Below the pieces are notes generated by a model. That model did no database searches. It was not told where the DNA came from and worked only from the letters and a program-made list of their open reading frames with translations. The translations under genes and the position numbers were made by a program. A stretch of DNA of 64,000 nucleotides from an uncultured Acidobacteriota bacterium (GTDB lineage Bacteria; Acidobacteriota; Thermoanaerobaculia; Multivoradales; UBA5704), in the NCBI GenBank assembly GCA_963756455.1, contig CAVWNC010000003.1, forward strand, positions 1,537,430 through 1,601,429, in the 5' to 3' direction. Below, piece by piece: positions 5,319 to 38,696 of the stretch (the stretch's first letter is position 1; each line of letters opens with the position of its first letter).

Positions 5319-8756
<3,438 letters not shown>

Positions 8757-25929: not shown

Positions 25930-26024
25930 ATCGACCTCCGATATACCGAGGGAAGACTATGCGCCGGGATGGGCGGGGAGCAAGGGTTGGAGGGTCTGAC
26001 CTCCGTGCCTGCCCGGACAGAAAC

Positions 26025-27173
26025 CTAGAGCCGGGTCAGCCCGGAGAGCAGGGCCAGATACTCCGGAGCGCCCATGGGTCGCGGGTTCGAAGCATTCGAG
26101 CCATTCTGAGCGGCGCGCTTGGCGATCCAGGGGTAGTCCGCGGGGGGGATGCCGAGGTCGGCGAACTCCGGAGTGTGGAGGGTACGGACGAGCGCCTCGA
26201 CCGAAACGAGGAAGCGTTCGGCCCGCTCGCGATCGTCCGCCCCCGTGGGACCGCCGGGGAGAGTCGCTTCGAGGACGGCGAGCCGCGGCGCGATCGAATC
26301 TCCGTGCGAACGCAGGACCGGGGCGAGGAGGACGGCGTTGGCGAGCCCGTGTGGGGTATCCCAGCGGGCGCCGATCGTCTCCGAGAGGCAGTGGACGGCC
26401 GCCACGTCGGCGTTGCCGAAGGCCATGCCGGCGAGGGTCGCGGCCTCGGCCATCCCCTCCCGCGCCTCGGCGTCGAGCCCGATGTCCTCGACCGCCCGCT
26501 TGAGATAGCGGAAGAGGAGGGTGATGGCGCGCGCCGCGAGCGCGTCCGAGGCGGGGTTGGCGGCGCGACCGGTCACCGCCTCCAGGGCGTGGGTCAAGGC
26601 GTCGAGCCCGGTCCAGGCGACGAAGGAGGGCGGGAGGGTCTTCAAGAGGTCGGCGTCGACGAGCGCCCAGTCGGGATACATGGAATCGCCCTTGAGGCTC
26701 ATCTTCCATAGCCGCTCGGGGTGGGTGATCACCGACACCCAGGTAACCTCGGAGCCGGTGCCGCAGGTGGTGGGCACGGCGAGGAAGGGGAGCGAGGGCT
26801 TCGGGGCGCGGTTCTTCCCTTCGTAGTCCTCCGCGCGGCCGCCGTTGGGGACGAGCATCGCTAGGGCCTTGGCGGCGTCGAGGACGCTGCCGCCGCCCAG
26901 GCCGATGACGAGCGACGCTCCCTCGGCCCGCACCCGCTCGGCCAGGCGGTCGACGGTCGTCGCTCGGGGATTGGGCTCGATCTCGTCGGTGATGAGAACG
27001 GTGAGGGACTGAGCGGCGAGGTCGCGGGCCACCCGCTCCGGGGTGCCGGTCGCCCGGTAGCCCCGGTCGGTGACGAGGAGAACCTTCCGTGGCGCGTAGC
27101 TCGCCGCGATCTCCGGCAGACGCGCGACGCACCCCGGTTCGAGGACGGTGCGCGTCGGCAGACGGAAGGGCAT
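26025..27173 (-). CDS. Iron-containing alcohol dehydrogenase family protein
   Basis: The GGGS..D.AK NAD-binding motif (GLGGGSVLDAAKA) and conserved His/Asp metal-ligand regions of the Fe-ADH family are present. Confidence 0.85.
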   Translation of the reverse strand: MPFRLPTRTVLEPGCVARLPEIAASYAPRKVLLVTDRGYRATGTPERVARDLAAQSLTVLITDEIEPNPRATTVDRLAERVRAEGASLVIGLGGGSVLDAAKALAMLVPNGGRAEDYEGKNRAPKPSLPFLAVPTTCGTGSEVTWVSVITHPERLWKMSLKGDSMYPDWALVDADLLKTLPPSFVAWTGLDALTHALEAVTGRAANPASDALAARAITLLFRYLKRAVEDIGLDAEAREGMAEAATLAGMAFGNADVAAVHCLSETIGARWDTPHGLANAVLLAPVLRSHGDSIAPRLAVLEATLPGGPTGADDRERAERFLVSVEALVRTLHTPEFADLGIPPADYPWIAKRAAQNGSNASNPRPMGAPEYLALLSGLTRL

Positions 27174-27226
27174 GGAGAGACGTCCGAGAGAGCGGGAAGC
27201 GCGCTCAGAGGCGAGCGCGCGATCGC

Positions 27227-28663
27227 CTACTGCGGCTTCTTCTGGCTGGTGCGGAAGAAGTCGGCCATCGAGCCGAAGCCCGATCCGCTGCTCACGGAGG
27301 ACGCTGCCGGCACCCCCTCGTCTCCACGCTCGGCACGATGGTCCCGCTCGCGCTCCCGGCTGCCACCGCCGCCGCCACGCTCGCCTCCACCACCGCCACC
27401 GCGCTCGCGACGCGGCCGCTCCTGGCGCCCGCCGCCACCCCCTCCAGAACCGCCGCGCTCACCGCCCCCGCCCCCACCGCGTTCGCCGCGCGGCGGAGCC
27501 GGTTCGCGCATCTCGCCGCCGCCGCGTTGCGGAGCCTCTTCGCGCTCGCCCTGGAGCGAGAGGGAGATCCGGCGCTTGGCGGTGTCCACGCTCAGCACCG
27601 TCACCTCGACGTCCTGGCCGAGTTGCAGCACCTCGCGGGCGTGGTTGATCCGCCGTCCGGCGCCCAGCTCGCTGATGTGGGCGAGGCCTTCGAGACCCGG
27701 CGCCACCTCGATGAAAGCGCCGAAGGTCTCGAGGCGCATGACCCGACCCTTGACCTTGGTGGCGTCGGGGAAGCGGGTCGCCGCCTCCTTCCAGGGATCG
27801 GCCTCCAGGGCCTTGCGGGAAAGCGAGATCCGCTCCCCCTGCTTGCCGCCCTTGGCGGGCTCGATCTTCAGGATCTGGACTTCCAGCTCCTGGCCGACCT
27901 GGAGCACGTCCTTGGGGTGGGCCGTCCGCGCGTAGCCGATCTCGCTTACGTGGAGCATCCCTTCGAGGCCGCCCAGATCCAAAAAGGCGCCGTACTCGGT
28001 GAGCGACGTCACCTTGCCGTGCACCACCGCGCCGGGCTGGAGCCTCTCGCGGGTCTCCGCCGCCTTGGCCTTCTGCTCCTCTTCGAGGAGAGCGCGGCGG
28101 GAGAGGATGATGTTGGGGCGCCGCCCCTTGCCCCCCTCCTCGTACTTGGTGACCCGGAAGGTCAGCCGCTGGCCGACGAAGCGCTCGGGGTCCTCGACGT
28201 AGCGCAGGTCGAGCTGGGAGACCGGGCAGAAGCCGCGCAACCCGGAGACCTGCACCTCGACGCCGCCCTTGACGACCGCGGTCACCAGCCCCTCGACAGG
28301 GACGCCGTTCTGGTGCGCCGACTCGATCTCGGAACGCGCCTCGGCGCCGCGCCCGCCGGCCCGGCGCTTCAGCACCAGGCTGCCGGTGTCGCTGTCGACC
28401 CCGGTGACCGTCGCCTCCAGGTTGTCGCCGACCTGGACCGTGACCTGGCCCTCGGCGTCCTTGACCTGGGCGAGCTCGATCATGCCTTCGGCCTTGCCGC
28501 CCAAATCCACGAACGCCGCCTCCGGCCCGATCGAGAGAATCTTGCCGCTCACCTTGTCCCCCACCTTGGGGGCCTGGGCGCCGTCGGCAGCCGGCTTGTC
28601 CTGCTCGAATTCGGCCAGAATGGAGCCGAAATCGGTTTTGTCTTCAGTCTCGTTCTCGTTCAT
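27227..28663 (-). CDS. S1 RNA-binding-domain protein (ribosomal protein S1-like, four S1 repeats) with an Arg/Gly-rich C-terminal tail
   Basis: It has four S1 motifs (G..V.G.V......GAF.....G..G..H.SE). The C-terminal ~110 aa is RGG/GGGGER low complexity. The start was chosen at MNENETEDK. Confidence 0.8.
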   Translation of the reverse strand: MNENETEDKTDFGSILAEFEQDKPAADGAQAPKVGDKVSGKILSIGPEAAFVDLGGKAEGMIELAQVKDAEGQVTVQVGDNLEATVTGVDSDTGSLVLKRRAGGRGAEARSEIESAHQNGVPVEGLVTAVVKGGVEVQVSGLRGFCPVSQLDLRYVEDPERFVGQRLTFRVTKYEEGGKGRRPNIILSRRALLEEEQKAKAAETRERLQPGAVVHGKVTSLTEYGAFLDLGGLEGMLHVSEIGYARTAHPKDVLQVGQELEVQILKIEPAKGGKQGERISLSRKALEADPWKEAATRFPDATKVKGRVMRLETFGAFIEVAPGLEGLAHISELGAGRRINHAREVLQLGQDVEVTVLSVDTAKRRISLSLQGEREEAPQRGGGEMREPAPPRGERGGGGGGERGGSGGGGGGRQERPRRERGGGGGGERGGGGGSRERERDHRAERGDEGVPAASSVSSGSGFGSMADFFRTSQKKPQ

Positions 28664-28890
28664 AGGTGCACAACTGTAGCGAAGCGGAGGCTCGAAGTCG
28701 ACCCCATCTAGCACATTTCCTATCCCAAACCGCTCCAGCTCGGCTACAATGGTGTGCCCTCAAGAGGACAGACGGGCCGAACCGTGGGCTTTCGCTCCAG
28801 GGTAGCACTCTCTTTGCTCGTCCCCTGCATCTCCCCTCCCTGCGAACCGCGTGGTAACTTTGTTGCCCAGGCCCCGTAGGAGATTCCTGT

Positions 28891-30099
28891 ATGGCATCCG
28901 TCACCCCTCTCCTCCAACGTTCTGCCGCCTCGGATCCCCTCGCCCTGCCGGGCGCACCGGTCGCCCCTGTCGCCCAAAGCCGCAGTGCCACCCTCCCCTG
29001 GTACCTCTATGCCGCCCTCTTCGGCTCGACGAGCATCGCCGTCGGCCTGATCTGGGACATCTCCTGGCACGCGACGATCGGCCGCGACACCTTCTGGACC
29101 CCGGCGCATCTCGCGATCTACCTGGGCGGGGTCCTCTCCGGGCTCTCCTGTGGCTGGCTGGCGCTCCGCACCACCTTCGCGAGCTCGGCCGAAGAGCCGG
29201 CCGCGGCGGTCCGCTTCTGGGGTTTCCGCGCTCCGCTCGGCGCCTGGATGGTGATCTGGGGCGCCTTTGCCATGCTCACCTCGGCTCCCTTCGACGACTG
29301 GTGGCACAACGCCTATGGCCTGGACGTCAAGGTCATCTCGCCGCCCCACATGGTTCTCGCCGCCGGGATGATCGCCATCCAGCTCGGCACCATGCTGCTC
29401 GCCGTGGCCTGGGCGAACCGGGTGCCGCCAGCGGCCAAGCCGCGGCTCACCCTGGCCTTCACCTACGCCGCCGGCATCCTCTTAGTCCTCGTCGCCACCG
29501 TGGTGATGGAGTACAGCGAGCCCAACCGCCAGCACACCGGGCTCTTCTATAAGGTCTCGGCCGCCCTCTATCCGCTCCTCCTGCTCGCCGTCGCCCGCGG
29601 CTCGCGCCTGCGCTGGGGAGCGACCTGGGCGGCCCTCTCCTACACCGCGATCCGGCTCGCCCTGCTGTGGATCCTGCCGCTCTTCCCGGCGCACCCCCTT
29701 CTCGCCCCGATCTACAACCCGGTCCATCACATGTGGCCGACGGAGTTCCCCCTCCTGCTGATCCTGCCGGCGCTCGCGATCGACCTCCTCGTCCAGCGGA
29801 CGGGAGCGGGGAGCGACGGCCGTCTGGCTCTCTTTGCCGGCCTGGCTTTCCTCGCCGTCTTCTTCGTCGCCCAGTGGCTCTTCGCCGGCTTCATGCTCAC
29901 CCCCTACGCCCGCAACGGGTTCTTCGCCGCCGACCAGTGGACCTACTACAGCCGGATCGGCCCCTGGCGCCATACGTTCTGGGACACCGACATTGACCCG
30001 GTGACCCCGTTGAAGCTCGTCGTGGCTCTCGTCTTCGCCACCGTCTCGGCCCGGCTGGGTCTCCTCTGGGGGAGCTGGATGGGCCGGGTGCAGCGCTGA
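28891..30099 (+). CDS. Polytopic membrane protein of unknown function
   Basis: About 10 hydrophobic helices with conserved Trp/His-rich loops. It is translationally coupled (ATGA) to the next gene. Confidence 0.55.
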   Translation: MASVTPLLQRSAASDPLALPGAPVAPVAQSRSATLPWYLYAALFGSTSIAVGLIWDISWHATIGRDTFWTPAHLAIYLGGVLSGLSCGWLALRTTFASSAEEPAAAVRFWGFRAPLGAWMVIWGAFAMLTSAPFDDWWHNAYGLDVKVISPPHMVLAAGMIAIQLGTMLLAVAWANRVPPAAKPRLTLAFTYAAGILLVLVATVVMEYSEPNRQHTGLFYKVSAALYPLLLLAVARGSRLRWGATWAALSYTAIRLALLWILPLFPAHPLLAPIYNPVHHMWPTEFPLLLILPALAIDLLVQRTGAGSDGRLALFAGLAFLAVFFVAQWLFAGFMLTPYARNGFFAADQWTYYSRIGPWRHTFWDTDIDPVTPLKLVVALVFATVSARLGLLWGSWMGRVQR

Positions 30100-31637
30100 T
30101 GCGGCAGCCCGGCGGGCCGTCCGGCTTGCTGCGGCGTCTCGCGGGATGGGCCGGCATAGCGGTCGTGGCCCTCGTCACCTGGGGGCACGTGGGGAGCCCG
30201 GACGTCTACTTCGAGAGCCTCGAAGGCCCCTACCCGGTGCGGGTCGTCATCCGGCCGCCGATCGTCGTTCCCGGGCAGGCGGAGATCACGGTGCGGACGC
30301 TCTCGCCCGCCGGCTCCCCAGCCTCTCAAGTCACCGGCATCGGCGTGCAGCCGGTGGTGTGGAACGCCGGTCCCGAGGGGGTGCCCCCGCCAGAGCCGGC
30401 GCGCCGGGTGCGCGGCGACCTGAGCCTGTGGAGCGCCCAGCTCTGGCTGATGCGCCCGACCTCCTACAGCGTTCGGGTCCAGGTGAAGGGCCCCGCCGGC
30501 ACCGGCACGGTGCTCGTCCCGGTCGTCGCTTTCGCCACCCGCCGCCTCCCCATGCAGCGCGGGATGGCGATCGTCCTCACCGTCCTCGGCGCCTTCCTCC
30601 TCGCCGGAGCCCTCACCGCGATCGGCGCCGCCGTGCGGGAGAGCGAGCTCCCCCCCGGAGTGGAGCCCGATCCGCGGCGCCGGCGCCGGGCCCGCTGGGT
30701 GGTGGTGGGGACCGCGGTCTTCTTCGGCCTCCTCCTCTGGGGCGGCCGGGTCTGGTGGCGCCGGGTCGACGTCGAGTTCGCGCGGACGATCTACCGCCCC
30801 TTCGCGGTCGCCGCGAACGTTCTTCCCGCCGGGCCGGGCCGGGAGCTCACCCTGAAGGTCGATACGCGGAACCGCGAGTGGCTCCCCCTGATCCTCGACC
30901 ACGGCAAGCTCCTGCACCTCTTCCTCGTCCGGGAGCCGGGGCAGGACGCCTTCGCCCACCTCCACCCGGTCCCGCAGAACCGCGACGAGACCGTCTTCGC
31001 CGCCACCCTGCCGCCGCTCCCCGCCGGCTCCTACCGCCTCTACGCCGACGTCACTCACGAGAACGGCTTCGCCGCGACTCTGACGACGGAGGTGGACGTC
31101 CCGCCGCTCGCGCCGAACGCAACCGCGAGCACGCCGGCCTCCCCGGCGCCGGACCCCGACGACTCTTTCCGCACCGATTCCGGAGCCGTGGCCGGCCCCG
31201 GCGGCACCTTTGCCCTCGGCGACGGCCTCACCCTGACCTGGCTGGGGCCGGCCGGATTACGGGTGGCGGGAAAGGATGCCGGCCTCCGCTTCGCTTTCCA
31301 CGGCGCGGACGGCAAGCCGGCGCCGCTCGAGCCCTACATGGGGATGCTCTCTCATGCCGCGATCGTAAGGGACGATACGGATGGGGGTGGCCCGGTCTTC
31401 ATCCATCTCCACCCGGAGGGGACGATCTCCATGGCGGCGCTCCAGTTTTTCGAGAAGCAGCAGGGGAGAGGCGGCGACGGCATGGCCGGAATGGGGAGCA
31501 TGGCGATGTCTCCAGCCGATGGCATCCTCGCTTTCCCCTGGTCGTTCCCCCAGCCTGGCCGCTATCACCTCTGGGTGCAGGTGAAGAGCGGTGGCCGGGT
31601 GCGGACCGGGGTGTTCGCGGTCGATGTAACGAACTGA
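30099..31637 (+). CDS. Hypothetical membrane-anchored periplasmic protein with repeated beta-sandwich-like modules and a His/Met-rich motif (possible metal binding)
   Basis: An N-terminal TM segment is followed by two similar ~120-aa modules, a TM segment, and then HLHP...HLHPEG and GDGMAGMGSMAMS motifs reminiscent of Cu-binding Met-rich loops. Confidence 0.55.
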   Translation: MRQPGGPSGLLRRLAGWAGIAVVALVTWGHVGSPDVYFESLEGPYPVRVVIRPPIVVPGQAEITVRTLSPAGSPASQVTGIGVQPVVWNAGPEGVPPPEPARRVRGDLSLWSAQLWLMRPTSYSVRVQVKGPAGTGTVLVPVVAFATRRLPMQRGMAIVLTVLGAFLLAGALTAIGAAVRESELPPGVEPDPRRRRRARWVVVGTAVFFGLLLWGGRVWWRRVDVEFARTIYRPFAVAANVLPAGPGRELTLKVDTRNREWLPLILDHGKLLHLFLVREPGQDAFAHLHPVPQNRDETVFAATLPPLPAGSYRLYADVTHENGFAATLTTEVDVPPLAPNATASTPASPAPDPDDSFRTDSGAVAGPGGTFALGDGLTLTWLGPAGLRVAGKDAGLRFAFHGADGKPAPLEPYMGMLSHAAIVRDDTDGGGPVFIHLHPEGTISMAALQFFEKQQGRGGDGMAGMGSMAMSPADGILAFPWSFPQPGRYHLWVQVKSGGRVRTGVFAVDVTN

Positions 31638-31737
31638 ATTTGAACGACGAAAGCGGATAGCGAGAGGGCCGGCGCGGGGCCTATTCTCTCTCTTGTCGCC
31701 ACCCCTCCAGGTGGTGCCTTCGAGAGAGAGGGAGATC

Positions 31738-32421
31738 ATGCACACCGTCATCGACCCCGCGATCCTCTACTTCGGTACCCCCGTCGTCCTCGTCAGCACG
31801 GAGAACGAGGACGGCTCGCCCAATTTAGCGCCGATGTCCTCCGCCTGGTGGTTGGGAAAGAGCTGCATGCTCGGCTTCGGCGCCCGTTCGAAGACCCCCG
31901 GAAACCTCCTGCGGACCGGTGAATGCGTGCTCAACCTGCCGTCCGTCGCGCAGGTCGCCGCAGTCGACCGGCTGGCGCGGACGACGGGCTCGAATCCCGT
32001 GCCGCCGCACAAGAGGGCCATGGGCTACCGCTTCGAGCCCGACAAGTTCGGAGTCGCCGAGCTGACCCCGCTCCCTTCCCACACCGTGCGCCCGCCGCGG
32101 GTCGCCGAGTGCCCGGTGCAGCTCGAAGCCGTCCTCGCCGGGAGCCATCCGCTCGCTGCCGGCGATCCCGACCGGCGGGGCAACCTAGTGGGGATTGAAG
32201 TGCGAATCAAAAAGGTTCACATTGAGGAGAGCCTGCTCTTAGCCGGTCACATCGACCGCATCGATCCAGAGAAGTGGCGCCCCCTGATCATGAATTTCTG
32301 CCAGTTCTTCGGCCTCGGCCCCCTCCTCCACCCGTCGCGGCTCGCCGAGATCCCGGAATCCGCCTATCGCCCCGCGGCCCGTCCCGCGGCCCTTCCGCCC
32401 CAACTTCACTCGGCAGCCTGA
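31738..32421 (+). CDS. Flavin reductase-like (FMN-binding split-barrel) domain protein
   Basis: The N-terminal pattern PVVLVST.....PN.APMS....G fits the flavin reductase-like domain. Confidence 0.7.
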   Translation: MHTVIDPAILYFGTPVVLVSTENEDGSPNLAPMSSAWWLGKSCMLGFGARSKTPGNLLRTGECVLNLPSVAQVAAVDRLARTTGSNPVPPHKRAMGYRFEPDKFGVAELTPLPSHTVRPPRVAECPVQLEAVLAGSHPLAAGDPDRRGNLVGIEVRIKKVHIEESLLLAGHIDRIDPEKWRPLIMNFCQFFGLGPLLHPSRLAEIPESAYRPAARPAALPPQLHSAA

Positions 32422-32433
32422 GGAGAGATCGCC

Positions 32434-33504
32434 ATGCTCGACGAACGTACCTGCTGGAACGCGGTTCTCGCCAAGGACGCCGGCCAGGATGGCCGCTTCT
32501 ACTTCGGCGTCTTAACGACCGGAGTCTACTGCCGCCCCTCCTGCCCCGCCCGCAAGCCGCGCCGCGAGAACGTCCGCTTCTACGAGGCGCCCGAGGCGGC
32601 GGAGAAAGCTGGCCTCCGGGCCTGCCTGCGCTGCCGTCCGAAGGAGACGCCGGAGGTCCAGAGCGCGAAGATGGGAGAGATCTGCGACTTCCTCCGTCAG
32701 GCCTCCCTCTCCGGCGAGCCGGTGACCCTGGAGATCTTGAGCGAGCGGGCCGGGATGAGCCCCTTCCGCTTCCAGCGCGTCTTCCGCGCCGCCCTCAAAG
32801 TGACGCCCCGACAATATCTCCAGGCCTGCCGCTTCGAGGCGCTCAAAAAGAGCTTGCGGAGCGAGGGCTCGGTGACGGACGCCATCTACGAGGCGGGTTT
32901 CGGTTCGAGCAGCCGGGTCTACGAACAGACCGACGCGCGTCTCGGCATGACTCCCGCCGAGTACCAGGCGGGCGGCCGGAACCTCGCGATCTCCTGCGCT
33001 TCCTTCGAGAGCCCGATCGGCCGGTTGATGGTGGCCGCTACGGATCGCGGCCTCTGCTTCGTACAGTTCGGAGATTCCCACGAAGCGCTTCTCGCGGCGC
33101 TCCGCAAGGAATATCCCGAGGCCACGATCGAGACGCTGGCGGCGCCCTTCGAGGCGCCTTTCGATCGCTACGTCGAAGCGCTCCGCCGCCATCTCGCCGG
33201 CGACCAGCCGCACTTGGACCTGCCCGTCGCCGTCCGCGCCACGGCCTTCGAGCTCAAAGTCTGGAGCTACCTCCAGTCGATTCCCTACGCCGAAAAGCGT
33301 TCCTACTCCGCCGTGGCCGCCGCGGTCGGCCAACCCCAAGCCGCCCGCGCCGTGGCCCGCGCCTGCGCCGCCAACCGGGTGGCCCTGGTGATCCCCTGCC
33401 ATCGAGTGATCCGGGCGAACGGAGATCCTGGAGGGTATCGGTGGGGGTTGGAACGGAAGAAGCGCCTGTTGGAGGGAGAACGGACGAGCGCCAACGCTCT
33501 GTAG
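32434..33504 (+). CDS. ada: Bifunctional Ada: zinc-finger methylphosphotriester methyltransferase, AraC HTH regulator and O6-methylguanine-DNA methyltransferase
   Basis: An Ada Zn-binding domain (CRPSCPARKP...CLRCRP) is followed by an AraC-type HTH and a C-terminal MGMT active site PCHRVI. Confidence 0.85.
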   Translation: MLDERTCWNAVLAKDAGQDGRFYFGVLTTGVYCRPSCPARKPRRENVRFYEAPEAAEKAGLRACLRCRPKETPEVQSAKMGEICDFLRQASLSGEPVTLEILSERAGMSPFRFQRVFRAALKVTPRQYLQACRFEALKKSLRSEGSVTDAIYEAGFGSSSRVYEQTDARLGMTPAEYQAGGRNLAISCASFESPIGRLMVAATDRGLCFVQFGDSHEALLAALRKEYPEATIETLAAPFEAPFDRYVEALRRHLAGDQPHLDLPVAVRATAFELKVWSYLQSIPYAEKRSYSAVAAAVGQPQAARAVARACAANRVALVIPCHRVIRANGDPGGYRWGLERKKRLLEGERTSANAL

Positions 33505-33564
33505 ACAAACTATACGACGACGGCGGGTGCTAAAATGACGTCTCTCCGATTGGCATGAGGCCCA

Positions 33565-34836
33565 ATGACGAACGTCACTGCCCTGCCCCTCCGCATCGTC
33601 TTCTGCCATGCCTCGCAGCCCGACGGCCTGGACAAGGCTCCGCCTTCTTGGGGTGCCATCACGGCGTCGGAGCTCGAGCTGACACTCTTCGGTGATCCCG
33701 CGAAGGATCGTTCCCGGCGCTGGGAGCCGCTCGATCTCGCCGCCGCCATCCCGCTCAAGGACGACATCGGTTTCCGGACCTTTACGGCTCGGTCACGTCG
33801 GCCGGATGGGAGCCTCCAGCCCGCGGCGGAATTCTTCGACGAGGTGCTGCACACGATTCTGGTCGTGTTCGTGGACGATCTCCTGCAGGGGGATTTGGAC
33901 CTGGTCGACTGGCTGACGGACTGCCTGCGGCACTGCGACGCTTCCTCAGGACGGCACCGCTTCGTGTCCGTGGTACCCGGTGACGAGACGAGGAGACGAT
34001 GTCTCGCTAAGCCCGGTCTCGGAACCCACAATGCGGTCGACTTCTCTCAGCTGGGCGAAGAGGCGGAGCGCCTGGACTGGCTCTCTCTTCAGGTGCTGGA
34101 CTGGGCGATGCAGGCGGCGGCTAGAGGGGCCGGCGAGGGCAAACAGTGGAAAGTGCGATTCTTCGTGTCCCATGCCAAGCGGGACGGAATCTCGCTGGCC
34201 CAGAGCCTGCGGGACCGTGTGAAGGAGATCCACTGGCTGGAGAGCTTCTACGACGCCTGGAGCCTGGACCCGAGCCGGCCGTGGATCGAACAGTTGGAAG
34301 AGGCGGTCGCCTCCTCGGTGGTGGTGGCGCTGCGCACGGACAACTATGACCACCGGCCCTGGTGCCAGGCGGAGGTTCTCTGGGCCGAGCAGCACGGCTC
34401 TCCCCTGATTCTGGTGGATGCGCGGAGCGGCCTCGTCCATGCGGCGAGCAATCTCCCCTATGAGAGCGCTCCCTGTGTGCGGATTCCGGACGGCAATCTC
34501 GTCCGCATCCTGCATGCGGCCTTGCGCGTCGCCCTGCGGGCGCGGATCTTCGTTCGCCGAGCCCAGGAGCTCAAAAACCTGGGACTTCTGAACGGGACGG
34601 TCGAGCTCATCCCGGTCACCCCGGGGCTTCGCGCGATCGTCGGCGCTTGCAGTAAGTTGGAACGTGCAGCGAAGGATGCGGCGAAGAATCCACCGCCCTA
34701 TTCGGTCTGCTACCCCGATCCGGGGCTCCGGGACGTGATCAGCCGGGCGGCGCAGGCGCTGGCCGCGAGTGCCTCGGTTCCGATCCAGATCGTGACTCCA
34801 CGAACCCTGCTTTCCGCTCCGGGGGTGACGGTATGA
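33565..34836 (+). CDS. TIR-domain protein (central TIR with a WC..E catalytic motif) with N-terminal TIR-like and C-terminal unknown regions
   Basis: The central KVRFFVSHAKRDG...LEEAVASSVVVALRTDNYDHRPWCQAEVLWA matches the bacterial TIR fold, including the conserved Glu. The N-terminal ~175 aa (LRIVFCHASQPDG..., ILVVFVDDLL) may be a second, degenerate TIR-like domain. Its stop overlaps the start of the next gene (ATGA). Confidence 0.65.
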   Translation: MTNVTALPLRIVFCHASQPDGLDKAPPSWGAITASELELTLFGDPAKDRSRRWEPLDLAAAIPLKDDIGFRTFTARSRRPDGSLQPAAEFFDEVLHTILVVFVDDLLQGDLDLVDWLTDCLRHCDASSGRHRFVSVVPGDETRRRCLAKPGLGTHNAVDFSQLGEEAERLDWLSLQVLDWAMQAAARGAGEGKQWKVRFFVSHAKRDGISLAQSLRDRVKEIHWLESFYDAWSLDPSRPWIEQLEEAVASSVVVALRTDNYDHRPWCQAEVLWAEQHGSPLILVDARSGLVHAASNLPYESAPCVRIPDGNLVRILHAALRVALRARIFVRRAQELKNLGLLNGTVELIPVTPGLRAIVGACSKLERAAKDAAKNPPPYSVCYPDPGLRDVISRAAQALAASASVPIQIVTPRTLLSAPGVTV

Positions 34837-35762
34837 GCGTCCACGCCCAGCCGCTCGCCGGGCTCCGCGTGGGGATCTCGATCTCTGAGAGCGACGATCT
34901 GGAGGCCCGGGGTTTCACGCGTTCCGCGATGAACCGTCTGACGGTCCGCTTGACCGACGCGTTGCTGGCTGCCGGGGCGACTGTGGTGTTCGGCCACGAC
35001 TGGCGAGAGGACGGCATTATGGATGCCGTCTGCCGCTCCGCCCTTTGGTCTTTCGGAGTTCCGGAGCCGGACGCCCGACCCCCGGTTCTCAACCTGCTCC
35101 CCTGGCCGGATGAAACCCGCGTGGACAGCGAAATTCGCCTCCGTTTGCACCAGGTCATCGACATCCGCTCCGCGGGCCTGCCCGAGAGCCTGCTCAGGGA
35201 GGCTCCAAAGGCAGCGGAGGATCGGGATCTCCGGCGTTACTTGCGTTCTCGCGGCCTCACTCACCTTCGGCGTAGGTTGACGGAGGAGTGTCAGGCACGC
35301 ATTTGCCTGGGCGGTCGAGAGAGCGGATACCAGGGCCGCTATCCCGGGGTCCTGGAGGAGGCGCTGCTCGCGTTCGAGGCACGCCAACCGGTGTATCTGG
35401 TCGGCCTGCTCGGTGGGGTTGCCGAGCACCTGGGCCGCAGCATCCTTGCTCTGCCGAATCCGCGCGCGGGACAGGAGAGGGTCCCTCCCCCGGCAATGGG
35501 GCCTGGAAAGTCTTTGGAAGATCTCTACAGGGACCATCGCGACGGGGACCGCCCCTCTCGTGATCCTTTGGACGACACGAGCTTCGAGTTGGAGCGCGCG
35601 TGGGAGGCTGCAAGAAACGTCGGCCGGGAAAGACTCGGAGACAATCGGCTGGATTACGACGAGGGCCGCCGGTTGGTGGAGAGCCGGTCCGAGGAGGAGG
35701 TGATCATCCTCGTGCTGAGGGGGTTACGGCGGAAGGTTGACCCAGAGAGGAGGCGGCGGTGA
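34833..35762 (+). CDS. SLOG/LOG-like Rossmann-domain protein (putative nucleotide-signal sensor) with a charged C-terminal tail
   Basis: The order of motifs mirrors the LOG/SLOG family: LRVGISISESDD, then TVVFGHDW.EDGIMDAV, then ICLGGRESGYQGRYPGVLEEALLA....PVYLVGLLGG (cf. the LOG PGGyGTleE motif). The assignment is by pattern only. Confidence 0.5.
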   Translation: MSVHAQPLAGLRVGISISESDDLEARGFTRSAMNRLTVRLTDALLAAGATVVFGHDWREDGIMDAVCRSALWSFGVPEPDARPPVLNLLPWPDETRVDSEIRLRLHQVIDIRSAGLPESLLREAPKAAEDRDLRRYLRSRGLTHLRRRLTEECQARICLGGRESGYQGRYPGVLEEALLAFEARQPVYLVGLLGGVAEHLGRSILALPNPRAGQERVPPPAMGPGKSLEDLYRDHRDGDRPSRDPLDDTSFELERAWEAARNVGRERLGDNRLDYDEGRRLVESRSEEEVIILVLRGLRRKVDPERRRR

Positions 35763-35821
35763 GCTCTCTGCCTGGACCTCCGAACCGGGTCAGCTCGGGA
35801 GCGTGGCGGATACGTCTCGCT

Positions 35822-36177
35822 GTCCCGTGGGTCGGCCTCCGAAGCTCGCCTCAGGGGTTGCCGGCGCCGTTGTGGCCTCTTCGCGGGTCGTGCCGCCTGG
35901 CTCGCGGGTCGAAAAACGCCGTTCACGGACCGAAAAACTCGCGAAACGGGCGTTTCGAGGCGCTCGCGCGCCGATATGGCGCCTTACGGGCCAGTTCGCG
36001 GGTTTCACGTGTCGATTTTGGCGTTTTTCGGCCCGGTAAGATCGCGAATCGAGCGATTCGCGCCCTGATTCGACTTGTCGTCGCGTTTTTCGGGACGTGC
36101 GTCGCGTTTTTCGACTCGTCGAGGGCATTTTTCGAGGTTCACGACGGGTTTCCATGCCATATTGGCAGGTGAGGGAG
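35822..36177. repeat. Intergenic repeat, copy B, interrupted by a ~239-bp A/T-containing palindrome-rich insertion (35908..36146)
   Basis: 35822..35907 and 36147..36177 align with copy A (14825..14942). The intervening segment carries CGAAAAAC/GTTTTTCG motifs and perfect hairpins (cgaaacgggcgtttcg; gcgccgatatggcgc; cgcgaatcgagcgattcgcg). Confidence 0.7.
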
Positions 36178-36335
36178 GCCCGTCAAGGGCCATCGTTGAG
36201 GAGGACATACATCGGGTCCTGTTCCCGGATTCGCCTCAGCCCCGGATCTTGGAAGAGCTAAGGGAGGGCGTACGGCAGCACGCAAAAAACCGCCCTACAG
36301 CCGTTGATAGCTCTTCTACACCCAAATCTCCGAAG

Positions 36336-37067
36336 TCATAGAAGCGCCCGTAGATCCAGCGCATTGCGGGTCGCGGCGTCTCGCGCTGTGTTGTCGAAGA
36401 TGCACCAGACGTTCCGCTCCGCCGCTCGGTCCGCTTGGAGGCGCGAGGCCAGGCTTTCGAGGTACTCCCTGGAATACTCCGAGTAGTACATTCTGGGCGA
36501 GCCGTGGAGCCGATAGTAGACGAGACCGCGCCATCCCCCCGGCTCTCCGGCCTCCGGCACCCGCGCGGGATCGGCGGCGACCCGGGCCACCCCGAGATCT
36601 TGGAGGAGATCGGCGACCGGAACCTCGAACCAACTCGGATGACGGGGCTCACAAACTACGGGAATCGACGAAAGCGATCGAAAGTTCGCGAAGAACTCGG
36701 CCACGGGATCGGGCTCGAACCCGAGGCTGGGAGGGAGTTGGACGAGAAAGCATCCGAGCCGGTCCCCCAGGCCGGCCGCCTCGGCGAGAAACGTTTGGAG
36801 AAGACCCCGGGCGTCGCGCAGCCGGAGGCCGTGGGTGATCGCCTTCGGCACCTTGACCGAGAAGCGGAACGAGGAGGGAACGCTGGCGGCCCAGCGGGCG
36901 TAGGTGGATGGGCGATGCGGACGGTAGAAGGAGCTGTTGATCTCGACCGCGTCGAACCGGGCGGCGTACCGCTCCAGGTGGCTGCCCTCCGCGGGGAAGC
37001 ACGCCTGCTCCGCACGCGGCAGGTTCCAGCCGGCGCAACCGACTCTCCAGAGCGGATCAGGCGGCAT
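36336..37067 (-). CDS. DUF72 (YecE-like) family protein
   Basis: VGCAGWN...YA..F..VEINSSFYR..... matches the DUF72 signature. Confidence 0.75.
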   Translation of the reverse strand: MPPDPLWRVGCAGWNLPRAEQACFPAEGSHLERYAARFDAVEINSSFYRPHRPSTYARWAASVPSSFRFSVKVPKAITHGLRLRDARGLLQTFLAEAAGLGDRLGCFLVQLPPSLGFEPDPVAEFFANFRSLSSIPVVCEPRHPSWFEVPVADLLQDLGVARVAADPARVPEAGEPGGWRGLVYYRLHGSPRMYYSEYSREYLESLASRLQADRAAERNVWCIFDNTARDAATRNALDLRALL

Positions 37068-37155
37068 CGGATCACTCGGGGGATCGGCGCTCGGGCTTCA
37101 TGATGCGAAAAAGACAGTGCAAGAGGAGCGCCGACCTCGCATAGAATCCTCGACC

Positions 37156-37671
37156 ATGACTCCCTTGACGACGACCCACCTCGCCCACATCCTCGCGACC
37201 GACTCCGGGATCGACCCGGCCTATCGGCACGCCCCCAAGCGCGTCACCCCGGGGGAGCCGCTCGAAGTGCCGGGGACGTTTCTCAAGTGGTACGGCCTCC
37301 ACGCCGGGGACCGGCCGATTCCCTCCGAGTTGACGCGCCTGGCGCGCGAGCGGCTGACCGGAGCTCCGATCGACGCCAAGGGGATGGGCTTCGTGATCCT
37401 TCACCGCTGCGGAAAAGATTTCTACTTCCTCATCGTCTGCACCTGGCGCAACTCGAACGAGATGTGGCAAACCGTGTTCTACAAGGACGGCGACGCCATG
37501 GCCGAGTTCGAGCTCTTCCCGCGGGACGACGCCCATAAGCCTACGCTCTGTGTCTGGGAGCTGGTGCCCGTCTGGCACGAGCAGCAGGCTTGGTCGCGCC
37601 TCCTCCTCTCCGCGCGGGACGAGGCCGCGGCAGAGGCGTGGCGAGACGATCATTTCGCCGGTCCCGCCTAG
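37156..37671 (+). CDS. Hypothetical protein
   Basis: A 171-aa ORF starting MTPLTTTHL with protein-like composition. No domain is recognised. Confidence 0.45.
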   Translation: MTPLTTTHLAHILATDSGIDPAYRHAPKRVTPGEPLEVPGTFLKWYGLHAGDRPIPSELTRLARERLTGAPIDAKGMGFVILHRCGKDFYFLIVCTWRNSNEMWQTVFYKDGDAMAEFELFPRDDAHKPTLCVWELVPVWHEQQAWSRLLLSARDEAAAEAWRDDHFAGPA

Positions 37672-37715: not shown

Positions 37716-38078
37716 TCAACCTTCCCGATGCACGAGAGTCGGCGAGAAGGCCGGCAGGCAGACGGCGATGTATTCGGCGCCTTCCGGGTCGGGGGTGCTG
37801 TAGCGCACCCACTCGCCGCGGCCGACGACGATCGCCTCTCCGGCTTTGACGTCGTAGGTCTTCTCGCGGGTCTCGACTCGGAGCGCGCCGCGGAGGACGA
37901 CCGTGTATTCGTCGAATTCCGGGGTCTGCGCGGGTTCCTCCCAGCCGCCGGGGCTCGTCATCCGGGCGATGCTCGTCGATTGGGTTCCCGAATTCACATT
38001 GCCGACGAATTCCTCGATCAGCTTGGGCTTGTTGCCCGCGGGAGCGATCCGGGTCGGCGCGGTCAGGTGCTTCACCAT
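37716..38078 (-). CDS. Cupin-domain protein
   Basis: The cupin beta-barrel motifs (G.....H......Y.V.G) are present. The start is at MVKHLT, with an RBS GAAAGGAA that lies inside the upstream 27-bp repeat. Confidence 0.6.
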   Translation of the reverse strand: MVKHLTAPTRIAPAGNKPKLIEEFVGNVNSGTQSTSIARMTSPGGWEEPAQTPEFDEYTVVLRGALRVETREKTYDVKAGEAIVVGRGEWVRYSTPDPEGAEYIAVCLPAFSPTLVHREG

Positions 38079-38086
38079 AGGCTCAA

Positions 38087-38113
38087 TTCCTTTCTCGTCA
38101 AGCCTCGACAGGG
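38087..38113. repeat. 27-bp direct repeat, copy 1 (ttcctttctcgtcaagcctcgacaggg), immediately upstream of the cupin gene
   Basis: It is identical to 38768..38794. Together the two copies bracket the higB-higA cassette. Confidence 0.8.
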
Positions 38114-38125
38114 CGCGAGCTGATC

Positions 38126-38446
38126 CTACCCTGCTCGGTGAGCGGGGATCTTCTCCAACTCGTGGCGTAGTCGTTTCTCGGCATGCCACAGATCGAAGCG
38201 CTGTTGCATGCGAAGCCAGAGCCCCGGCCCGTTGCCGCAGAACTTGCCCAGACGGACGGCCATCTCGGGACTGATGGCCGACTTTCCGGCCAGGACCCTA
38301 TGCAAGGTCTGGCGGGTGACACGAAGCTGGCGTGCCGCTTCGCTCACGGAAAGGTTCAAGGCCGGCAACACGTCCTCCCGCAGAAGCTCTCCCGGATGAG
38401 TGGGTGGGCGGCGAGGTTTCTCAGGCGGTGTCGTTTCTCGGGCCAT
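38126..38446 (-). CDS. higA: HigA-family antitoxin (XRE-type HTH)
   Basis: PTHPGELLREDVL..L.LSVSEAARQLRVTRQTLHRVLAGKSAISPEMAVRLGKFCGNGPGLWLRMQQRFDLW is the canonical HigA signature. The ATG lies 11 nt downstream of the higB stop in the reconstructed frame. Confidence 0.8.
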   Translation of the reverse strand: MARETTPPEKPRRPPTHPGELLREDVLPALNLSVSEAARQLRVTRQTLHRVLAGKSAISPEMAVRLGKFCGNGPGLWLRMQQRFDLWHAEKRLRHELEKIPAHRAG

Positions 38447-38457
38447 ACTCGTCCCCG

Positions 38458-38696
38458 CTAGTGGTATTGCACCAAATCTACCTGCACGGCGCCGTCCTGC
38501 GCCCATTGTACCGCTGCGGCTTGCCCCGCAAAGAATGAAAGTCGAAGCCCGGCACGTTGAGATCCAGCAAACCGGCTGCTTCATCCAGGGCGTCGAGCCT
38601 ACGGATTGCGCGAGCTCGTAGATCCTGCGGTACTTTCCGGCTGGAGCCCGTTTCGAACAACTCCTTGAGCCCTTTGTGCCGGAAGCTCTGGATCAC
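38458..38696 (-). pseudogene. higB: higB (RelE/ParE-superfamily toxin) disrupted by a frameshifting indel
   Basis: The N-terminus MIQSFRHKGLKELFETGSSRKVP...HSLRGKPQR is typical HigB. The track frame then ends in nonsense (YNGRRTAPCR*). The +2 frame continues as ...QWAQDGAVQVDLVQYH* with the family's C-terminal DGDA..VD..DYH-like motif, ending 11 nt before the higA ATG. The total length is ~12 aa short, suggesting a small deletion. Confidence 0.55.

Follow-up and report, generated by a model that had tools for sequence, protein, structure and literature searches.

Described Thoeris and TIR-SLOG systems

Innate immunity in bacteria, plants and animals is linked by TIR signalling of the Thoeris type, and to our knowledge each new Thoeris type so far has yielded a new signal molecule or effector. 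Type I combines the TIR protein ThsB with the SIR2-SLOG protein ThsA, type IV combines a TIR protein with a caspase-like protease, and type III, composed of ThcA and ThcB1-4, is reported to be anti-phage (van den Berg et al. 2024, as cited in bioRxiv 10.64898/2025.12.03.692087, PMC13276650). No mechanistic paper on type III was found in the literature. TIR-SLOG conflict systems have been credited to a 2015 survey by the Aravind group in a passage of PMC9503650, which also mentions "TIR-SLOG-based antiviral systems". SLOG cluster2 (Pfam PF18163) comes from the SLOG classification of that group and is a computational family; no paper naming or testing a cluster2 TIR-SLOG pair was found in a literature search that had the 2015 SLOG-defining paper outside its range.

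A pair of this kind is present in the window, i.e., the whole 64-kb stretch of DNA analysed here. Its features are as follows.

33496..35818, + strand: whole two-gene cassette, the stretch missing from the close relatives L087 and L088
33565..34836, + strand: gene 1, 423-aa TIR-domain protein with three predicted modules (ORF; AF2 model)
33565..34134, + strand: N-terminal alpha/beta module of gene 1 (residues ~1-190) and linker helix (predicted secondary structure)
34153..34485, + strand: TIR domain of gene 1 (residues ~197-307)
34372..34374, + strand: codon of E270, putative catalytic glutamate in R-P-W-C-Q-A-E (alignment)
34498..34833, + strand: C-terminal region of gene 1 (residues ~312-423), long helix and small alpha/beta module
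34833..34836, + strand: ATGA start/stop overlap of genes 1 and 2, 4 nt (sequence)
34833..35762, + strand: gene 2, 309-aa stand-alone SLOG cluster2 protein
34854..35477, + strand: SLOG Rossmannoid core of gene 2 (residues 8-215; invariant motifs)
35514..35759, + strand: C-terminal helical region of gene 2 (residues ~228-309), with a basic tail at its end
35819..36171, - strand: right-hand boundary, inverted segment with 85% identity to L087 8131-8481, reversed (blastn)

Comparison with the described types

The cassette looks like a relative of the Thoeris systems and, among them, is most like type III. In both, a small bare SLOG protein comes directly after a TIR_2 protein of ~380-420 aa that is extended at its N and C termini (in type III, the ~380-aa ThcB4 with ThcA directly after it), further TIR genes are often found near the cluster2 relatives too, and the loci lie on islands or plasmids. 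The type III reference set consisted of plasmid operons whose scores exceeded the thresholds of the NCBIfam models for ThcA and ThcB4. However, ThcA belongs to Pfam SLOG cluster3 and has ~190 aa, whereas gene 2 belongs to cluster2 and has an extra helical C-terminal region in its 309 aa, and no profile similarity between the two was detectable (hhalign probability 0.2%). Gene 1 scored 27.5 bits against ThcB4 (NF058526; cut-off 220), and the BLASTP match between them (E = 0.17) covered the TIR core only, which amounts to generic TIR similarity. Moreover, type III has four TIR genes (ThcB1-4) while the whole window has one. Membership of type III was rejected on the missing match to ThcA (NF058525), the ThcB4 score below cut-off and the single TIR gene.

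Type I was rejected as well, since its SIR2 and STALD effector is lacking: the pair has no SIR2 match, gene 2 scores 16.5 bits (cut-off 24) for the STALD-type SLOG, and gene 1 is three times as large as the ThsB proteins of type I typically are. The TIR-to-protease logic of type IV is shared by TIR-SLOG cluster2-CHAT fusions in two related loci (L066 and L067), but the cassette in the window has no protease, and type IV effectors sense their signal by a different C-terminal domain, not by SLOG. Membership of the LOG cytokinin-activating phosphoribohydrolases was rejected because their PGGxGTxxE motif is altered to YPGVLEE in gene 2 and no LOG Pfam family matched at E <= 1; in addition, the genomic context is of the conflict type, not metabolic. 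As in Thoeris in the broad sense, a TIR gene stands in an operon with a protein that carries a nucleotide-ligand sensor domain.

The preliminary description had proposed that the module could be an undescribed TIR-signalling defence variant or a nucleotide-processing pair. The defence part agrees with the defence-island contexts of the relatives (see below), while "undescribed" went too far: gene 2 is covered by a curated Pfam family, TIR-SLOG systems are mentioned in PMC9503650 and the architecture parallels type III Thoeris, so that the module is not wholly new.

The two proteins

The domain and fold assignments of both genes are firm. Gene 1 had been regarded as a TIR protein retaining a WC..E catalytic glutamate context, and both points were borne out. 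Its residues 199-282 match Pfam PF13676 (TIR_2) with 43.7 bits (cut-off 28) and the region adopts a TIR fold; the AF2 model of the protein has a pLDDT of 87.8 and a pTM of 0.88. E270 is invariant across 26 sequences and lines up with the Glu of WPQKE in PdTIR (3h16). Gene 1 thus has the conserved glutamate of the enzymatic (NADase/cyclase) TIRs and is a putative enzyme. Its start position is also used by homologues 83-87% identical, and its residues ~119-420 are conserved among relatives. The N-terminal module, earlier described as also looking TIR-like, was not TIR-like by hhalign and had no Pfam match; it is the least conserved part of the protein and a candidate infection-sensing region. 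After the strongly conserved VDAR...VRIPDGNL stretch comes the C-terminal region, a candidate surface for contact with the SLOG protein.

Gene 2, assigned earlier to the LOG/SLOG fold, does have the SLOG/LOG/DprA Rossmannoid fold and is a clear member of PF18163 (148.2 bits, cut-off 25.3, E = 4.3e-43), which was present in 120 of 120 gene 2 homologues among the matches listed. The invariant motifs of its core are FGHDWR, LPWPD, Y..R..L..LR, ARICLGG, GRYPGxxEE and GLLGG, and its pocket is structurally closest to the 3'cADPR-binding SLOG of ThsA. The C-terminal region has helices at 228-235, 253-271, 275-283 and 287-302 and the conserved residues D248, W257, N271, E277 and N278; it lies inside the Pfam model of the family, and fusions keep full-length Pfam coverage. 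No match was obtained for gene 2 in NCBIfam at E <= 1 or among the PADLOC v2 models, and the PDB profile search with its family gave nothing at E <= 10. By Pfam, no separate effector domain is present in the pair, in agreement with the earlier remark that gene 2 carries no SIR2, TM or nuclease effector domain.

Coupling, distribution and fusions of the pair

The overlap of the gene 2 start with the gene 1 stop, noticed in the preliminary description, is the 4-nt ATGA, with a G-rich Shine-Dalgarno-like run upstream of it, through which the two genes are translationally coupled. In 11 other loci the TIR stop likewise lies 4 nt beyond the start of the SLOG match. Relatives of gene 2 were recovered from the genome contigs by an alignment-based rescan, the single-sequence scan having given no match; the family as a whole comprises ~2,300 clusters at 50% identity from many phyla. 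The conserved co-occurrence that had been suggested as a check was clearly present: TIR and SLOG were adjacent or fused in 56 of the 60 evaluable loci (46 have a gene 1 relative immediately before the SLOG gene on the same strand, and 10 more have a fusion), always in the order TIR then SLOG. These loci come from Acidobacteriota, Planctomycetota, Verrucomicrobiota, Pseudomonadota, Actinomycetota, Myxococcota, Gemmatimonadota and others. The association fits the antiviral systems mentioned in the passage of PMC9503650.

Besides the TIR-SLOG-CHAT fusions, a SLOG-patatin fusion (L020) and metallophosphoesterase fusions were found among the relatives. The CHAT and patatin fusions would place the cluster2 SLOG in a sensor position beside classic cell-killing effectors. 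According to the supplement of bioRxiv 10.64898/2025.12.03.692087, SLOG-patatin candidates, which may or may not be cluster2, were unprotective in E. coli.

Genomic position of the cassette

Positions 26023-33495 of the window correspond to L087/L088 at 92% identity, and the similarity ends there (blastn). The left edge of the cassette is the 3' end of ada, and the right edge is an inverted copy of the post-ada gene of the relative. An ORF at 35790-36155 (- strand) belongs to this right-boundary segment; its counterpart in L087 is a small gene after ada, called at 8142-8480, and the gene has no Pfam match. The TIR-SLOG pair is missing from both L087 and L088, which share the ada neighbourhood. 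The cassette is an indel relative to these close relatives and is horizontally acquired, and the post-ada spot in this genome is a variable site that took up accessory, defence-type genes. A copy 88% identical, with a match that spans exactly 33565-35732, occurs elsewhere in an unrelated context, and the unit in common is the two genes.

The pair starts 60 nt 3' of ada, and its other neighbours are a flavin reductase, a DUF72 gene and an efflux pump. No promoter-like site was found upstream of the pair, so its transcription may rely on read-through from ada. Terminator-like sites occurred at chance level, and the Rfam search of 33000-37200 gave no RNA family. A functional link to ada was rejected because none of the 72 related loci has ada; DUF72 and flavin reductase genes were likewise in none of them.

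No known defence or mobility genes lie immediately around the pair in the window, which counts against a defence reading. The relatives, in turn, sit among extra TIR genes, Eco57I-type restriction-modification genes, integrases, transposases and Nmad2-MazG-UDG genes. Extra TIR genes were present within 8 kb in ~36 of 58 related pairs, often as a short TIR gene right after the SLOG gene, and minimal two-gene forms recur elsewhere (e.g., L076 on a 447-kb contig). No third conserved component was seen in the related loci. Viral contigs gave only trivial 29-residue matches and therefore no support for a phage-borne counterpart.

Possible function and alternative explanations

The pair is probably a TIR-SLOG conflict/signalling cassette. 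An anti-phage role is suggested by the island contexts of the relatives and by the indel status of the cassette, and type III Thoeris, with its matching layout, offers a precedent. The explanation that we favour, to which we give slightly better than an even chance as a whole, is an anti-phage cassette of the Thoeris kind that is self-contained in its two genes and was transferred horizontally. The variable N-terminal module of gene 1 would detect infection, and the TIR domain, via E270, would cleave NAD+ to an ADP-ribose-derived small molecule. Gene 2 would be the receptor, its SLOG pocket binding the product of gene 1. As there is no separate killing domain, the pair itself would have to provide the output. 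Most likely, the ligand-bound SLOG would assemble with the TIR protein into a high-activity, NAD+-depleting state, and the resulting feed-forward loop of NAD+ depletion could lead to growth arrest or abortive infection. This specific feed-forward output is put forward tentatively, as somewhat less likely than not.

Alternatively, the SLOG could itself be an enzyme, either a LOG-like N-glycosidase or phosphoribohydrolase effector that, once activated, degrades a nucleotide pool, or a protein that makes the end product, toxic or signalling, out of the TIR product. We consider this unlikely.

Two further explanations are improbable to about the same degree. In one, the TIR protein is a constitutive NADase toxin that the co-translated SLOG restrains, either by binding the TIR protein or by consuming its product, and toxicity is freed when the SLOG is lost or titrated in infection. 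The overlapping, tightly coupled genes in toxin-antitoxin style, their strict adjacency and the lack of a third conserved component would suit such a module, but the single TIR-SLOG polypeptide of ten independent loci is at odds with the logic of an unstable antitoxin, and signalling is what the extra TIR genes and the effector fusions suggest. In the other, the system is incomplete or depends on components in trans, i.e., the SLOG senses the TIR signal but has its target, an effector or a partner TIR, elsewhere in the genome, or local accessory genes were lost. The additional TIR genes near many related pairs, of which the window has none, and the right flank rearranged by inversion could be explained in this way; however, neither ORF is disrupted and every invariant residue is kept, minimal two-gene forms such as L076 recur in other genomes, and what the cassette shares with the 88% identical copy is precisely the gene pair.

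A housekeeping pair of nucleotide metabolism with no conflict role (e.g., in the metabolism of NAD+ or of cytokinin-like bases), perhaps with a link to ada, would agree with the ordinary neighbours and with the closeness to ada without a promoter-like site, but it is hardly credible given the absence of the pair from close relatives with the same ada neighbourhood, the lack of ada, DUF72 and flavin reductase genes in all 72 related loci and the patchy distribution across about nine phyla in island-like contexts.

Significance of the cluster2 pair

The cluster2 family is large and spans many phyla that are poorly covered by screens in model organisms. Since the cluster2 pair exists in nature as two genes, as a fusion and as a fusion with an effector (CHAT, patatin), it is a good system in which to ask if the SLOG serves as sensor, scaffold or enzyme. 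A possible, though doubtful, outcome is a closed two-protein immune circuit without a dedicated effector, in which the SLOG would sense the NAD+-derived product of the TIR protein and then either polymerise with the TIR protein, leading to runaway NAD+ depletion, or act as a ligand-activated nucleotide glycosidase. If true, such a circuit would be a Thoeris type with a logic unlike the generator-signal-effector scheme of types I, II and IV-XI, and type III Thoeris would be explained by it as well.

The gene pair and its surroundings

A preliminary description made from the sequence had placed two ORFs beside ada, and both lie at the positions it gave them. The features discussed here are as follows.

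33491-33504: 3' end of ada, with the synteny break
33565-34836, + strand: gene 1, ORF of 423 aa, TIR-domain protein
34833-35762, + strand: gene 2, ORF of 309 aa, SLOG cluster2 protein
35790-36155, - strand: small ORF in an inverted segment, Arg-rich protein of ~120 aa

The gene 1 start is preceded by GAGG and agrees in position with homologues of 83-87% identity. The junction reads GGGGGTGACGGTATGA, so that the start codon of gene 2 (ATG) and the stop codon of gene 1 (TGA) overlap, and a G-rich Shine-Dalgarno-like run lies upstream. The ada gene (Pfam domains Ada_Zn_binding, HTH_AraC and methyltransferase) ends 60 nt upstream of gene 1, and a DUF72 gene is found on the opposite strand 570 nt downstream of the pair. 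The G+C content is 0.64-0.68 in the pair, 0.68-0.76 upstream and 0.59-0.63 in the downstream gap.

Long ORFs overlap on opposite strands between DUF72 and a cupin gene (36937-37671, +, 244 aa, without a Pfam match; 37072-37653, -). The cupin-domain ORF (37716-38189, -) shares 64 nt with the upstream HTH_3/XRE-domain ORF (38126-38584, -), whose sequence we take to be reminiscent of HigA-type antitoxins.

The two proteins

Gene 1 was recognized as a TIR protein, as had been proposed, by Pfam TIR_2 at residues 199-282 (43.7 bits; cut-off 28). PADLOC and NCBIfam gave only weak TIR-level matches, to ThsB (the type I Thoeris TIR) and to ThcB4 (a type III TIR protein; 27.5 bits vs cut-off 220). The AlphaFold model is confident (pLDDT 87.8, pTM 0.88) and shows three alpha/beta modules.

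Residues ~9-160: N-terminal module, followed by a linker helix
Residues ~197-306: TIR domain
Residues ~345-416: small C-terminal module, preceded by a long helix

The TIR domain has a catalytic-type glutamate: in a profile search of PDB sequences, R-P-W-C-Q-x-E was paired with W-P-Q-K-E of a solved bacterial TIR. Invariant in the 26-member family alignment were F-x-S-H-A-K-x-D-G, F-Y-D, R-T and R-x-x-C-x-x-E-x-x-W-A, the last including the putative catalytic residue E270; a further strongly conserved stretch, V-D-A-R ... V-R-I-P-D-G-N-L, lies C-terminal to the TIR domain.

The SLOG assignment of gene 2 was likewise borne out by Pfam PF18163 'SLOG cluster2' (148 bits vs 25.3, E = 4.3e-43). Its Pfam match to STALD, the SLOG family of the type I effector ThsA, was below threshold, and no model of PADLOC v2 or NCBIfam matched it. 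When 1.84 billion representative proteins were searched by profile, 2,342 family members were recovered at E <= 1e-3, and 1,708 with the stricter limit of E <= 1e-10. The family consists mostly of stand-alone proteins of about 300 aa, and proteins of 620-770 aa with a C-terminal SLOG made up ~1/10 of the best 150 of the 2,342 matches. The invariant motifs are F-G-H-D-W-R-x-x-G, L-P-W-P-D, Y-x-x-x-R-x-L-x-x-L-R, A-R-I-C-L-G-G, G-R-Y-P-G-x-x-E-E and G-L-L-G-G, and the C-terminal helical region also holds several conserved positions.

Conservation and fusion of the pair

An alignment-based scan with one genome per species gave 72 SLOG loci. In most of them tblastn places a gene 1 relative right before the SLOG, in the same orientation. 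Twelve loci were set aside, 8 because the SLOG match was fragmentary and 4 because the sequence upstream was too short, which left 60 evaluable. The TIR gene is separate in 46 of the 60, and in 11 of these its stop falls 4 nt into the SLOG match, like the ATGA overlap in the window; in 10/60 the two are fused. The remaining partners (4/60) are a TPR protein upstream of a SLOG-patatin fusion, a ParA-like ATPase, a reverse transcriptase and a cytidylyltransferase. The loci belong to Acidobacteriota, Desulfobacterota, Verrucomicrobiota, Vulcanimicrobiota, Gemmatimonadota, Planctomycetota, Pseudomonadota, Actinomycetota and Myxococcota. The fusions are listed below.

TIR-SLOG, 665-751 aa: eight loci
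TIR-SLOG-CHAT protease, 1,224 and 1,293 aa: L066 6753-10427 and L067 6624-10505, from a Kofleriaceae and a Luteolibacter genome
SLOG-patatin, 1,196 aa: a Planctomycetota genome
Metallophosphoesterase-containing protein with a partial SLOG at its end

The cluster2 SLOG of these fusions occupies the place of the sensor domains in other signalling defence systems, and the TIR-SLOG-CHAT proteins look like an entire TIR-signal-to-protease pathway within one polypeptide.

In gene maps with Pfam labels the pair is constant and its surroundings variable. The neighbours include short ThsB-type TIR genes, SEFIR-TIR, TIR-NB-ARC-WD40, AAA ATPases, Nmad2-MazG_C-UDG, Eco57I-type methyltransferases, integrases and transposases. 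Of the 58 genome loci in which tblastn placed a gene 1 relative immediately before the SLOG or in fusion with it, about 36 have at least one extra TIR gene inside 8 kb by an iterated TIR HMM, often a short one immediately after the SLOG gene; the same HMM found none besides gene 1 in the 64-kb window. The minimal two-gene form also exists elsewhere, e.g., in L076 on a 447-kb contig.

A block of Nmad2, a MazG_C-type NTP pyrophosphohydrolase and a uracil-DNA glycosylase (L073 4354-6778 and L082 9072-11497) adjoins the cluster2 pair in a Bryobacteraceae genome, and both a type III Thoeris-like operon and a SIR2-TIR pair on a Cupriavidus plasmid. The association of this block with TIR systems is recurrent.

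Insertion-type difference after ada

The closest relative of the pair has 88% DNA identity exactly over 33565-35732, with no match elsewhere, and sits in a TIR/AAA island. Genes for Ada, DUF72 and the flavin reductase are absent from all the related loci. Two close relatives, L087 and L088, share 92% DNA identity with the window over 26023-33495 and the gene order Fe-ADH, S1, two membrane proteins, flavin reductase and ada, and both are devoid of the pair. Synteny ends at 33495, within the last ada codons and about 9 nt before the stop, and Ada is 356 aa long here, 370 aa in the two relatives and 370-372 aa in proteins that share its 90% identity cluster; an insertion or rearrangement has therefore replaced the C-terminal tail of the protein. 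Window positions 35819-36171 correspond, inverted and at 85% identity, to the small gene directly after ada in L087; the Arg-rich product has no Pfam match. Since synteny breaks at 33495 and the inverted copy begins at 35819, the segment 33496-35818 comprises the two genes and little else, and amounts to an insertion-type difference in a variable place.

No two of the three related genomes have the same stretch after ada: six small genes without a confident Pfam match follow in L087 (8142-12417), and three tiny ORFs and then a Suf/NifU cluster in L088 (8114-9822). This suggests that the site is a variable hotspot. In the inverted segment of the window, about six copies of a short motif, GTTTTTCG / CGAAAAAC, occur between 35909 and 36135.

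Relationship to Thoeris

Thoeris types I-XI have been catalogued in a 2025 Sorek laboratory preprint (10.64898/2025.12.03.692087), which describes type III (van den Berg et al. 2024) as a system of several TIR proteins and a coupled SLOG effector, with uncharacterised signalling. According to a 2026 review (PMC13276650), the SLOG of type III is distinct from the STALD type. With the P. aeruginosa type III TIR4 sequence (Table S1 of 10.64898/2025.12.03.692087), homologous operons were located on Cupriavidus and Klebsiella plasmids. They encode a 380-aa TIR_2 protein (477 bits on NCBIfam ThcB4) and, 3 nt after its gene, a ~190-aa protein (~250 bits each on NCBIfam ThcA and Pfam PF18180 'SLOG cluster3'), with additional TIR genes nearby. 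A 538-aa patatin-type protein annotated 'CBASS cGAMP-activated phospholipase' (NCBIfam, 219 bits; L083 4858-6474, L082 3138-4754) sits between TIR genes just upstream of ThcB4-ThcA and could be a further effector of these plasmid islands.

Like the window pair, type III combines TIR with a bare SLOG devoid of an effector domain, and it is reported to defend; the plasmid layout thus provides a precedent for this arrangement. However, ThcA is a cluster3 SLOG of ~190 aa whereas gene 2 is a cluster2 SLOG of 309 aa, without profile similarity to ThcA, and membership of the pair in type III was rejected. Gene 1 was also rejected as ThcB4, since the similarity is generic to TIR (E = 0.17). 'TIR-SLOG-based antiviral systems' are cited in a 2022 Aravind group paper (PMC9503650) from the group's own 2015 survey, and our literature search found no paper naming or testing a cluster2 TIR-SLOG pair. 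The preliminary reading of a TIR-SLOG signalling module is essentially right and the finding real, but the system is not categorically new.

Possible mechanism

The pair shows translational coupling, conserved adjacency, repeated fusion, effector fusions in relatives, an island context and mobility. TIR NADases are activated by oligomerisation, and ligand-bound SLOG of ThsA drives filament formation. The TIR protein would make an NAD+-derived signal upon infection and the SLOG protein would bind it; the nearest structure to the SLOG of gene 2 is a cADPR-isomer receptor. Given the lack of a conserved third gene and the repeated fusion of the two proteins, the pair itself would most likely deliver the output. 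The favoured route is an assembly driven by the SLOG, which would switch the TIR into NAD+ depletion.

The main rival is that SLOG acts as a LOG-like hydrolase, either as effector or as signal processor; SLOG domains have been proposed both as sensors of ADPr derivatives and as enzymes cleaving ribosyl N-glycosidic bonds (PMC9503650). Lesser candidates are a toxin-regulator pair, an effector encoded in trans and a housekeeping role; the indel status and patchy distribution of the pair are a poor match for the last.

Within TIR-SLOG (Thoeris-like) signalling, the pair stands as an experimentally uncharacterised variant and a sister of type III Thoeris, and its interest lies in the question of how effector-less TIR-SLOG systems work.
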